From the IMG/VR virus record IMGVR_UViG_2609460332_000008: a stretch of 64,000 nt of DNA; one strand, 5' to 3'. The stretch is from a virus. Its lineage: Duplodnaviria; Heunggongvirae; Uroviricota; Caudoviricetes. The first letter of the stretch is position 1; each line of letters starts with the position of its first letter. The position numbers were made by a program, and so were the translations under genes. Shown piece after piece: positions 1-34,214 of this stretch. The notes under the pieces were generated by a model. The model was not told the origin of the DNA, did not search any database, and worked only from the letters and a program-made list of their open reading frames with translations.

Positions 1-639
1 ACGATCTCTGCTGATAGCCAATCCACTTATCCGATAGTATTAAGCCTGAAAGATAGTAACGGTAAGGCATTAACCGGACTGGCTGATGACATTGAAATGT
101 CAGTGGAATTTACAGCAGATAGCAATAGTGCTCGACAGCGTGAAACGGTAACTGCTCCGTCATTAGGCGCGGTAGAGGAAATCTCTGCTGGGGTATATCG
201 CTCTGTTCTGGCTGCTGGTTCGCAGGCTGGTACGGTACGTGTAACTGCAAAAGTTCAGGGAAAAACATTTACTCTCAGTATTAAGCAAACAGCAACAACA
301 GAACCTGATTCTGAGGTCAGTGCTGTTTTAACCGCTGCACCAGCAGAACAGGTAGTTGGTTACAATATCAATCTACAACTGGCAGTGAAGGATTCACAAG
401 GAAATGCAATCACTGGTGATAACACTCTGAGCTTTTATGCTCTTAACCAGGCAGAAGGAGTCGAGTTTGGGACTGTAACGGAAAAAGACGGTGTCTATAG
501 CGCGACAGTAACTTCAAAACGAGCTGGTAAGATTACTATCGGTGTTAAATCTGATAGTCATGATTTCTCAGGTGTTAAGAAAGAAATCACCTTTATTGAG
601 GACCGGCAGCAGGTTACATTCTCTCAGTTTGAAGCCAGC
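1..639 (+). pseudogene. Invasin/intimin-family adhesin with bacterial Ig-like (Big) repeats, upstream fragment (5' end lies outside window); frame interrupted at 639/640 by the Mu-like prophage
   Basis: Frame is open from base 1; Big-domain-like repeats (GVYRSVLAAGSQAGTVRVTAKVQG, GVYSATVTSKRAGKITIGVK); the apparent stop TGA at 640-642 is the terminal TGA of the Mu right end; the frame resumes in phase at 34210. Confidence 0.75.
635..639. repeat. 5-bp target-site duplication CCAGC (copy adjoining Mu right end)
   Basis: ccagc immediately outside the Mu terminus at 640; identical ccagc at 34210..34214 outside the other terminus. Confidence 0.85.
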
Positions 640-754
640 TGAAGCGGCGCACGAAAAACGCGAAAACGTTTCACGATAAATGCGAAAAATTTAATTTTCG
701 CGCTTCAAACGAAACAGCGGCATTAACCGCTGTTTTTTTATTCATTAAGTGGGA
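640..754 (-). other. Mu right end (attR) with transposase-binding repeats
   Basis: Terminal sequence matches remembered Mu R end; lies between mom stop (755) and host DNA. Confidence 0.8.
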
Positions 755-1492
755 TCACTTCGGGTAGGGCTGAATCCTGAATAGCTTAGTGTTTAGGCGC
801 TTTTTTGCGCGCTTGTTCAGGAATCTGATGTAGCGATACTGATTAAATTTGTGTACCACGGCCCGCTCCTTATTAGCCCGCAAATACTCGCCTCGTTGTC
901 CTCCACGCTTAATCGCGTTCATCGTTATCTCGTGATACCACTCGCCGTCCAGCTCGTAGAACGTGCTTTCATGGCTACCAATAAAATCAAAATTCGACGC
1001 CTGATACACAACGCCTGCGCGTCCGCAGCGTTCGTCTGCAAAGGACTGAACCCACTCCACTGACGGATACAATAACCTGATGGTTTTTAGCGCATAGCTG
1101 ATGGCCCGTGATTCAGAGTTGCGGGGCATGTCGTCGTGTAGCCACATGCGGTTCAGTTCCATATAGCCCCGGTTATCCGTTTCCAGCACAACACGACGCC
1201 CTGAGTTGGGGTTAAGGGCATATCCCCACTGAAGAACGCCAACCAGATCACGTCCGCTGAATACGCCAAGATGCAGGTAGGAGTTATTCACAAAACGGCG
1301 GGAATAGTGTTTTGTCTGAATGATTGTGCGGGCCAGCCAGCAGGATATGGTTTCAACGCGCAGCTCCTTTGAACCATAGCCGACAATCCGGCCTTCATAC
1401 TCAATAACGCAGGGTTTTGTCAGAATGCGTGATTTCTTCTCTTTTCCCACAATACAGCTCCGTGGGATGCTCTTTGGCATTCGATATGACAA
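755..1492 (-). CDS. mom: DNA modification protein Mom (adenine modification, anti-restriction)
   Basis: Translation [30 protein letters not shown]... is near-identical to remembered Mu Mom; last gene before Mu right end; true start may be the internal MPKS Met. Confidence 0.85.
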
Positions 1493-1586
1493 TGTAACGT
1501 TTACAGCGAGGGCATTTAATTTCTATATGCTTAAAACCTCCTTTAAACAGTAATTTATTGCAGTTTTTACAGCGAACAGAGTCCAT
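1401..1586 (-). CDS. com: Com, zinc-finger translational activator of mom
   Basis: [33 protein letters not shown]... with CxxC...CxxC motif, overlapping mom 5' end as in Mu; start placed at internal Met (ATG 1584-1586). Confidence 0.8.
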
Positions 1587-1613
1587 GATTCCCCCTGTGT
1601 AATAACCAGACAT

Positions 1614-1750
1614 GACCGCCCGGAGGGCTGGGGGTATTTAATCACAACTGATGCAAACCGACGATCGATATGATGCTATCGATCGTCATAAACTATACAA
1701 AATGATTATTTATAAGTACGCTCCACATCCACTTTTCATGCTGAATTGCT
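1614..1750 (-). promoter_or_regulatory. mom operon regulatory region with clustered GATC (Dam) sites
   Basis: GATC at 1663-1666 and 1681-1684 within cgatcgatatgatgctatcgatcg upstream of com; position corresponds to the Dam/OxyR/C-regulated Pmom of Mu. Confidence 0.55.
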
Positions 1751-32882: not shown

Positions 32883-33110
32883 TTATTCACCTGCTTGATA
32901 TCGGCTAGGCCAGATGACTTCCGGTTTAGTTTCAAGGGCGTTAGCAATAATCTGTTCGCCCTTTGGCCAGTGCCGTTCTAGCGCATTAGCTAATGTTGTT
33001 GGCGCATAACCAAACTGCCGAGAAAGAGCTGATAAAGAGAGCTTTCTTTTCTTAAGTCCCGCAATCACATCAGCACGATGCCAATCACGGACCTTTTCGT
33101 TGGAACACAT
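32883..33110 (-). CDS. ner: Ner, DNA-binding negative regulator of early transcription
   Basis: 75 aa [48 protein letters not shown]...; position between the operator region and A. Confidence 0.85.
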
Positions 33111-33278
33111 TTAAAAACCCTCCTAAGTTTTGTAATCTATAAAGTTAGCAATTTAACTAAGTGCAAAAACTTAGTTTACTTGCCAAAAAGATAAATACTG
33201 AAAAGTCTTTTGTAAAGTGACTTTTTAGTATTGTTGATCATGTTTTGTGTATTATGTTGAAAAATAAGGGTTTAAATT
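33111..33278. promoter_or_regulatory. Mu early operator/promoter region (divergent Pe and Pc with repressor operators)
   Basis: AT-rich 168-bp spacer between divergent ner and c with repeated CTTTT/AAAAG-type elements (actgaaaagtcttttgtaaagtgactttttag). Confidence 0.6.
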
Positions 33279-33869
33279 TTGAAAAGTAACTTTATAGAAT
33301 CTGGTGATACTGAAAAGTCAATCTGGTGTACGCCGCAAGAAATTATGGCTGCTGATGGTATGCCTGGATCTGTTGCAGGTGTTCACTATCGGGCAAATGT
33401 TCAAGGCTGGACAAAGCGAAAAAAGGAAGGTGTGAAGGGGGGTAAAGCAGTTGAATACGATGTGATGTCTATGCCCACCAAAGAACGAGAGCAAGTTATT
33501 GCACACCTAGGTCTGTCTATTCCTGGCACTGCTGCTCAAGCTAATGAGCAGCAGGATTCTTCGGAGCTGATAAACAAATTAACCACAACCTTAATCAATA
33601 TGATTGAAGAACTGGAACCAGATGAAGCACGTAAGGCACTGAAACTATTAAGCAAAGGTGGGCTACTGGCGTTAATGCCACTTGTATTTAATGAACAGAA
33701 ACTTTACAGCTTTATAGGATTTTCACAGCAAAGTATCCAGACGTTGATGATGCTAGATGCATTACCTGAAGAAAAACGCAAAGAGATTTTGTCAAAGTAT
33801 GGGATTAATGAACAGGAGAGTCTTGTAGCTCCTTTGCAGGATCCACAAGATGTAAAAAAAGCCGTATAA
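33279..33869 (+). CDS. c: Mu c repressor (Rep)
   Basis: 196 aa MKSNFIESGDTEKSIWCTPQEIMAADGMPGSVAGVHYRANVQGWTKRKKEG... closely matches remembered Mu repressor c. Confidence 0.9.
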   Translation: MKSNFIESGDTEKSIWCTPQEIMAADGMPGSVAGVHYRANVQGWTKRKKEGVKGGKAVEYDVMSMPTKEREQVIAHLGLSIPGTAAQANEQQDSSELINKLTTTLINMIEELEPDEARKALKLLSKGGLLALMPLVFNEQKLYSFIGFSQQSIQTLMMLDALPEEKRKEILSKYGINEQESLVAPLQDPQDVKKAV

Positions 33870-34019
33870 CAACCAGGAATCTAGCTAAAACACGCACTTT
33901 CCCTCAAGTAACCTAGAGGGTAAGATACTGAAACAACAAAACCTGTTTTTGATATACGTCATTCGCCAGAAGCCTGGTTGTTATCGGGTTTGAAGCGTTT
34001 TTGAAGCTGCAATTGAAAT

Positions 34020-34209
34020 AATGCGTGAAGCAATTGCTTTTCGTATGTTTAATGAAACAAAAGCCATTTCTAACAATCTTTCGCGTTTCAATGCTTAACG
34101 GCTAAAATTTGCTCTACAGGCTTGCAAGCCCCACCAAATCTAATCCCGTCAAATCCCGAATAATCCAATATCCTCCCGGTTTTTTTCGTACTTCTCGTGA
34201 ATCAATACA
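34020..34209 (-). other. Mu left end (attL) with transposase-binding repeats
   Basis: Terminal ...GTGAATCAATACA ends at 34209 (reverse complement of TGTATTGATTCAC); AT-rich repeats GTTTCA/TGAAAC upstream. Confidence 0.8.
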
Positions 34210-34214
34210 CCAGC
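34210..34214. repeat. 5-bp target-site duplication CCAGC (copy adjoining Mu left end)
   Basis: Identical to 635..639. Confidence 0.85.

Follow-up and report, generated by a model that had tools for sequence, protein, structure and literature searches.

The stretch analysed here (the window) is 64,000 nucleotides of tailed-virus DNA, IMG/VR record IMGVR_UViG_2609460332_000008. It holds a Mu-like transposable prophage of 33,570 bp at positions 640..34209, lying on the minus strand with respect to the Mu map from c to mom, with ends that align to Mu positions 36717 and 1. Two parts of one adhesin gene flank the element, both on the plus strand. The internal part (1..639) corresponds to codons ~696-908 of a 1421-aa allele, carries Big_1 and Invasin_D3 matches and is 100% identical to positions 11362-12000 of the Escherichia coli AVS0051 locus (L004). 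The 3' part (34215..35756) comprises the distal 513 codons and the stop, now split from the promoter, signal sequence and barrel. From 35793 to the end of the window runs the remainder of a lambdoid prophage. Judged from its sequence, 640..34209 is an apparently intact, transposing prophage of the Mu type, and we consider it very probable that a Mu-family phage transposed into the passenger region of the adhesin, within the resident lambdoid prophage of an E. coli lysogen.

At the left junction (639/640) the sequence reads ...TTTGAAGCCAGC|TGAAGCGGCGCACGAAAAACG (also written ...CAGTTTGAAGCCAGC|TGAAGCGGCGCACGAAAAACGCG) and at the right junction (34209/34210) ...CTCGTGAATCAATACA|CCAGCCAAAAT (also written ...TTCTCGTGAATCAATACA|CCAGCCAAAATAATG). 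The copy of the pentamer CCAGC that abuts the element on the left (635..639) is matched perfectly over its 5 bp by the copy on the right (34210..34214); neither copy is assigned a strand, and the empty site holds a single one. The stop of the upstream open reading frame (97..642) consists of the element's own first three bases, TGA (GCC AGC TGA). When 1..639 is joined to 34215..35756, the resulting 2181 nt are divisible by 3 and form one uninterrupted frame of 726 codons that reads ...SQFEAS/QNNALADGKQRNMVTV... across the junction (residues also given as ...FIEDRQQVTFSQFEAS-QNNALADGKQRNMVTVSLADRF...). An in-phase, uninterrupted frame of this length lies far beyond chance. A sequence-only reading of this DNA had proposed the flanking pentamers, the Mu-type termini, an adhesin frame continuing in phase beyond the element and an upstream stop supplied by the Mu terminal TGA; all four were confirmed, and the sequence likewise shows directly the empty site, the integrity of the genes and the relatives at other sites described below.

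The empty site is abundantly represented. A 600-nt query reconstructed across the junction is 100% identical, without gaps, to the uninterrupted gene in hundreds of complete E. coli genomes, with coverage of at least 80% in 553 genomes and identity of at least 99% in 502 records. The comparison with related genomes that the earlier reading had recommended gave the expected result in strain SK1144 (locus L001), where a single CCAGC is present: the window sequence on one side of the element maps to 8662-9300 and that on the other to 9296-13764, so that the two share just the 5 duplicated bases. With the element removed, 2,888 bp of the window are 100% identical to AVS0051 and a further 27,547 bp are 99.996% identical (one gap, zero substitutions). 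The 30.4 kb of the window outside the element thus carry no substitutions relative to that strain, and the sole break in the match is an insertion sequence, IS1, within AVS0051's own hydrolase gene. The junction between adhesin and element was absent from 5,426 complete E. coli genomes, and 39-mers spanning the exact junctions had no match in GTDB representative genomes or JGI metagenome contigs. Since the junction is missing from all three collections, the insertion is probably lineage-specific and, from the state of its flanks, recent.

Both ends of the element align base for base to Mu and carry TG...CA termini together with predicted transposase-binding stretches. By BLAST, window 640-1576 matches Mu 36717-35778 at 89% and window 29667-34209 matches Mu 4544-1 at 91%. 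Because these alignments are reversed, the element is inverted in the window, with attR and mom at 640 and c-ner-A-B and attL at 34209. The attR end (640..720, minus strand) includes the terminal dinucleotide and aligns to the R1-R3 transposase-binding region of Mu; its first 26 nt match the right end of Mu without a difference, and the R1, R2 and R3 stretches are conserved with few substitutions. The attL end (34035..34209, minus strand) aligns to Mu bases 1-175, the L1-L3 region, with its first 13 nt identical and L1, L2 and L3 again conserved with few substitutions. We have taken these site names from the established Mu literature and presume that they apply to the predicted binding sites here. 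A scan for MuA sites with the Mu consensus, allowing up to 5 mismatches, returned scattered matches in Mu and the element alike and was uninformative; the end alignment was used instead.

Genes within the element were assigned from Pfam, from comparison with Mu and from the annotation of its closest copy, which is found in E. coli KFu019 (river water, Japan) and is 99.39% identical end to end. Adjoining attL is a divergent c/Ner immunity region. The c repressor gene (33279..33866, 196 aa; Pfam HTH_Tnp_Mu_1) is on the plus strand and reads towards attL and the 3' adhesin fragment; all other genes of the element named here are on the minus strand. They begin with ner (32886-33110; HTH_35) and the transposase gene A (30893-32881), whose product matches HTH_Tnp_Mu_1, HTH_Tnp_Mu_2, DDE_2 and Mu-transpos_C far above the cut-offs. 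Adjoining A is B (29917-30852; Phage-MuB_C, AAA_22), encoding a MuB-type AAA+ target-capture ATPase, and gam (28233..28754; Phage_Mu_Gam) encodes a host-nuclease inhibitor. An imperfect inverted repeat of 30 nt, 77% complementary and with 73 nt between its arms, was noted at 33859-33991, between the c stop and attL.

A single Mor/C-family activator gene (25837-26283) and a GH108 endolysin gene (25155-25748) lie between the early region and the virion genes, both identified by all three lines of annotation. The head and packaging genes (14185..22671) encode a G-like protein, the gpT major head protein, a protease, an F-like protein, a Portal_Mu (DUF935) portal and the large and small terminase subunits (TerL and TerS), as judged from Pfam, the KFu019 annotation and the Mu comparison. 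Homology to Mu and the KFu019 annotation likewise identify baseplate, N-like DNA-circularisation, tape-measure, tail tube and tail sheath genes at 5428..14204. The tail-fibre module (1751..5455) comprises a 605-aa fibre, a U-like assembly protein, a 253-aa S-like protein and a YmfQ/gp48-like protein, with neither an invertase gene nor G-type repeats. Next to attR is the DNA-modification operon (758..1586), made up of mom (758-1450) and com (1404-1586), which were recognised by Pfam Mom and Zn_ribbon_Com and by protein identity to Mu.

Comparison of the individual products with those of Mu divides the element in two. Among the early and transposition proteins, Ner is 99% identical, A 98% (663 aa), c 94%, Gam 92% and B 90%; for Mom the figure is 96%, for Kil 84%, for GemA 81%, for Com 73% and for Mor 63%. 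For the virion proteins, identity to Mu falls to 25-50% (25-42% in the set from baseplate to sheath). BLAST alignments to Mu, at roughly 90% nucleotide identity, hold 7,902 identical nucleotides, or 23.5% of the element. The best TerL matches among deposited phages are instead Klebsiella phage Kp4866-3, Shewanella phage MuM16-2 and Vibrio phage martha 12B12, at about 68-71% protein identity, and an 8-kb head/tail query aligns to Kp4866-3 (OK490420) over 94% of its length, at 70% nucleotide identity. None of these three was among the matches to the Mu-type early region, ends or mom. By sequence, then, the element is a mosaic in which a Mu-type immunity and transposition module, the Mu ends and mom are combined with the virion module of a different Mu-like lineage. 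The sequence-only reading had called it a Mu-like phage. Membership of the Mu family holds, but the element is not simply a phage like Mu or D108, given its mosaic make-up, the ~24% that aligns to Mu and the lack of gin, the G segment and C.

These three absences were each examined. Gin gave no tblastn match in the element, the KFu019 copy has no annotated invertase, and no inverted repeats of the G type were found bracketing the fibre genes; together these results indicate that there is no G-type invertible segment. The only match to Mu C was the Mor-family gene at 25837-26283 (32% identity), with no second homologue. Upstream of com (1587-1760) lies a cluster of two GATC sites, GACGATCGA...ATCGATCG, which resembles the Dam-site cluster upstream of the Mu mom promoter. 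The binding sequence of the Mu C activator is not conserved in that interval and, as the C gene is also absent, control of mom must differ from that in Mu. A 216-bp intergenic gap between the F-like and protease genes (18020-18235) falls at 47.6-48.2% of the element's length; local alignment of the Mu strong gyrase site to this central gap scored 26, against a shuffle maximum of 27.

In KFu019 the insertion falls in the interval between ltnD and ygbI, and ATGGT adjoins the copy at either end. None of the 50 coding sequences of that copy is shortened or broken by a stop in the window, and most are 100% identical. The differences between the two copies fall nearly all in the mom-to-baseplate end (640-8555), where the baseplate V protein is 92.7% identical. 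Segments of the tail-fibre genes match Shiga toxin (Stx) phages at the nucleotide level (phiSTEC1575-Stx2k at 87%, phiP27 at 94%) and, taken with the clustering of the KFu019 differences, this suggests that host-range genes have been exchanged by recombination with lambdoid phages. A further relative of 35,038 bp splits fic in E. coli 2014-01-7375, a Norwegian broiler isolate, with the duplication GCCAC. A 24-kb query taken from the element was covered to at least 80% in ~45 complete genomes, with up to 8 matching places per genome, and the same gene set lacking C and gin recurs across those ~45 genomes at differing sites.

Elements of this type have accordingly been found at unrelated sites: between ltnD and ygbI (ATGGT), in fic (GCCAC), beside kefC and in the adhesin gene (CCAGC). 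The copy beside kefC, in E. coli STEC388 (NZ_CP041425.1, 4085500-4093800), was considered as a second example of the duplication and dropped in favour of the fic insertion, being a 6.8-kb remnant fused to IS1A. It consists of the right end of the element, which adjoins kefC on one side and IS1A on the other; beyond IS1A comes a truncated carnitinyl-CoA dehydratase gene. An IS1-mediated deletion seems to have taken out most of the prophage together with the adjacent chromosome, reaching caiD. In the same genome, matches to the element query form 7 separate places.

Intact orthologues of the interrupted gene are annotated as "inverse autotransporter beta domain-containing protein". In the joined 726-aa fragment Pfam detects Big_1 (2.9e-57, five stretches) and Invasin_D3 (1e-48). 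In the 1302-aa allele of SK1144, residues 57-334 match the inverse autotransporter (IAT) beta-barrel (PF11924, E=1e-100) and Big_1/Invasin_D3 repeats come after it; the barrel in turn matches those of invasin (PDB 4e1t, E=6.5e-73) and intimin (4e1s). No LysM or C-type-lectin domain was matched by Pfam in either the joined fragment or the full protein. These features identify the adhesin, by sequence, as an inverse autotransporter (type Ve) of the invasin/intimin family. The gene contains a 357-bp (119-aa) tandem repeat with copies 98% identical (window 1-287; L004 10586-11648), and its presence in three copies in AVS0051 and two in SK1144 accounts for the 1421 aa of one allele and the 1302 aa of the other; passenger length therefore varies between strains with the number of repeats. 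The insertion follows codon 908 of the AVS0051 allele, equivalent to codon 789 of the shorter one. An invasin-like adhesin had been anticipated, and the Big_1/Invasin_D3 repeats and the PF11924 barrel of the orthologue support this. Judged by locus and protein size, the two properties compared, the suggested relationship to YeeJ or FdeC does not appear to extend to orthology. FdeC (1415 aa) and YeeJ (2359 aa) both occupy conserved chromosomal sites (PMC6714894).

The adhesin gene sits between the lambdoid replication gene P and a region containing an alpha/beta hydrolase gene, ybcN, ninE, rusA and Q. The full prophage has the order int-xis-exo-bet-gam-kil-cI-cro-ydaT-O-P-adhesin-hydrolase-nin-Q-lysis-iss-terminase-head-tail-J-fibre and lies beside an icd fragment. 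As the adhesin is cargo of this prophage, the Mu-like phage is nested inside another prophage; the wording "nested prophage" is rare in the literature. In the window the lambdoid remainder (35793..64000, plus strand, from the AVS0051 annotation) runs from the hydrolase gene through ybcN, ninE, rusA, Q, lysis, iss, terminase, head, tail, J and fibre genes and continues beyond the window end, where the reference prophage also has sitABCD.

Several further features of this prophage were noted. A GC-rich, bidirectional terminator-like hairpin (35768..35788, no strand) separates the adhesin gene from the convergent alpha/beta-hydrolase gene (35793-36836, minus strand). The latter is intact in the window and split by IS1 in AVS0051, where the flanks overlap by 9 bp. 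In many otherwise identical prophages the hydrolase region also holds ISEc23 (IS66-like), the match spanning ~2.5 kb beyond the query, and on this sequence comparison the hydrolase side of the prophage appears to accumulate insertions. The lysis genes encode holin, lysozyme and Rz, and iss is at 40954-41247 (minus strand). At the segment next to Q and the lysis genes (38678-40462) the SK1144 prophage carries other sequence, with quuD, an ompC-like porin gene and essD, while the nin and Rz/iss segments on either side are 99% identical between the two, a pattern typical of lambdoid mosaicism. Near-identical lambdoid prophages are present in AVS0051, REF2, EC17, THO-015 and other strains, beside the icd fragment and then sitABCD.

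A mechanism can be proposed by drawing on Mu biology for the transposition chemistry, for repression, for residual display of the truncated adhesin and for the packaging defect of the lambdoid phage. On infection of the E. coli lysogen by the Mu-family phage, MuA would have assembled on the attL and attR sites and MuB would have delivered a target within the passenger-coding region of the adhesin. The 3' ends of the element would then have been joined to target phosphates 5 bp apart, with gap repair producing the CCAGC duplication, and the c repressor, which is nearly of Mu's immunity type, presumably maintains lysogeny. The Mu TGA would end the adhesin at codon 908 of 1421 without adding residues, and the distal 513 aa would be split from the export machinery.

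The likely consequences for the adhesin are less severe than previously proposed. The truncated product would keep its signal sequence, barrel and proximal Ig-like domains and could still be exported. Because barrel and proximal domains are kept, the change is better regarded as a loss or alteration of function than as a null allele. The description of the event as a recent transpositional knockout is thus retained in part: the insertion is probably recent, but "knockout" is not warranted with 908 of 1421 codons still in frame. The 3' adhesin fragment has no export signal. Between c and attL a simple scan revealed nothing resembling a terminator, and since the fragment lies downstream of c on the same strand, read-through transcripts are possible. 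The insert of 33.6 kb raises the size of the lambdoid prophage from roughly 43-48 kb to about 77-81 kb. As the capacity of lambda-type heads is about 52 kb, its genome would be too long to package and the lambdoid phage is probably grounded; the insertion point also separates the replication genes from Q.

We think it likely, on sequence evidence, that the phage remains active, since three independent full insertions with three different duplications are accompanied by a complete gene set. The alternative, that the element is a fixed, defective remnant which no longer transposes or forms particles, draws on the absence of the late activator C, of gin and the G segment and of a recognisable strong gyrase site, and on the existence of degraded copies such as the IS1-adjoining 6.8-kb remnant in STEC388. 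Against this, the 50 coding sequences show neither stops nor frameshifts relative to an independent copy 99.4% identical, both ends and the duplication are perfect, and the recurrence of a gene set without C and gin at different sites in ~45 genomes points to the normal make-up of a working lineage and not to decay. We accordingly regard a defective remnant as unlikely. A chimeric assembly, in which a Mu-like prophage contig was joined to a repeated adhesin gene, would be in keeping with the 357-bp tandem repeats and with a junction unseen in the other public sequence searched. A misjoin would not, however, yield exact Mu termini, a perfect 5-bp duplication and an in-phase gene 100% identical to the empty site, and the insertion (L004 12000) lies outside the repeat block (L004 10586-11648), making an artefact highly improbable. 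Less probable still is an origin in laboratory mutagenesis with phage Mu or mini-Mu. The ends, A and ner are strongly Mu-like, as such an origin would predict, but the match to Mu, at roughly 90% nucleotide identity, covers only ~24% of the element, and its virion genes come from another lineage, a divergence that all but refutes this origin. Near-identical elements also occur in environmental and animal isolates.

Certain observations nevertheless weigh against recent transposition by a mobile Mu-family phage into this adhesin. A single copy of the element is visible in the window, and it has neither a homologue of the late activator C nor detectable similarity to the strong gyrase site; late-gene control and replication efficiency may accordingly differ from those of Mu. 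The duplication also departs somewhat from expectation. Mu prefers targets of the form N-Y-G/C-R-N, which ATGGT and GCCAC fit; CCAGC agrees at 2 of the 3 constrained positions, its central A standing where G or C is preferred. Finally, the left part of the lambdoid prophage and the 5' part of the adhesin gene (before codon ~696, including the barrel-coding part) lie outside the window.

Transposition of a Mu-family phage into the prophage-borne adhesin, the explanation we favour, provides a clean natural case of Mu-style insertional mutagenesis with an isogenic empty-site reference in AVS0051 and its relatives, and would allow the role of an unstudied prophage-borne adhesin to be tested. It is also a probable case of phage-on-phage interference, in that a lambdoid prophage with iss and the adhesin among its genes has gained 33.6 kb, which probably stops its spread. 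The element further draws attention to a lineage of mosaic Mu-like phages which is widespread among animal, environmental, Shiga toxin-producing (STEC) and enterotoxigenic (ETEC) E. coli and has no characterised isolate; no description of this prophage type was found in the literature. More tentatively, and at slightly less than even odds, we suggest that the element may belong to a genus-level lineage of E. coli transposable phages not described before, defined by Mu-type early genes, ends and mom, a Kp4866-3/martha-type virion, a single Mor-type activator and the absence of C, Gin and G inversion, and that it would have immobilised a lambdoid prophage with virulence cargo by landing in its early operon region. 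If this is true, one temperate phage has grounded another that carries iss, the adhesin and, beyond the window end, sitABCD.

Set beside known systems, the intact adhesin allele shares with Yersinia invasin, intimin and the E. coli proteins FdeC, YeeJ and IatA-D an N-terminal IAT barrel followed by Big_1/Invasin_D3 repeats. Invasin, intimin, YeeJ, IatC and IatD carry a C-type-lectin-like tip, whereas none was detected by Pfam in this adhesin. At 1302-1421 aa and within a prophage, it matches none of the sizes and fixed chromosomal locations given for FdeC, YeeJ and IatA-D (PMC6714894), from which size and location set it apart. No name for a prophage-borne inverse autotransporter was found in the literature, and tblastn of the adhesin against deposited phage genomes gave only distant matches of ~30% identity.

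For the element itself, Kp4866-3, MuM16-2 and martha 12B12 are the closest deposited phages with respect to the virion module; they come from other hosts, and their identity is well below that of the E. coli prophage copies. With Mu (Muvirus mu, NC_000929; relatives D108 and SfMu) the element shares attL over bases 1-175 and attR over ~120 nt, the 5-bp duplication, the early-to-late order, head and contractile-tail genes of the Mu family, and the order c, ner, A, B, kil, gam, gemA, mor, com, mom at 63-99% protein identity. It differs in having no gin, G segment or C, in being 3.1 kb shorter and in the place of its GH108 endolysin gene in the gene order. In every transposition-related feature compared, its sequence is that expected of a Mu-type transposable phage. 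The guideline of the International Committee on Taxonomy of Viruses for a genus is ~70% or more nucleotide identity over the genome, and on genome-wide nucleotide identity, Gin/G and the Mor-then-C cascade the element falls outside a strictly defined genus Muvirus. Unnamed Mu-like prophages of E. coli KFu019, SA53-3, STEC1575, 2014-01-7375 and others are elements of the same type, differing from the window copy in insertion site and duplication and varying in tail-fibre and baseplate alleles. The disruption of a gene by a Mu-type phage with a 5-bp duplication is itself a known and defining behaviour of Mu, and the present case leaves the current understanding of Mu unchanged.

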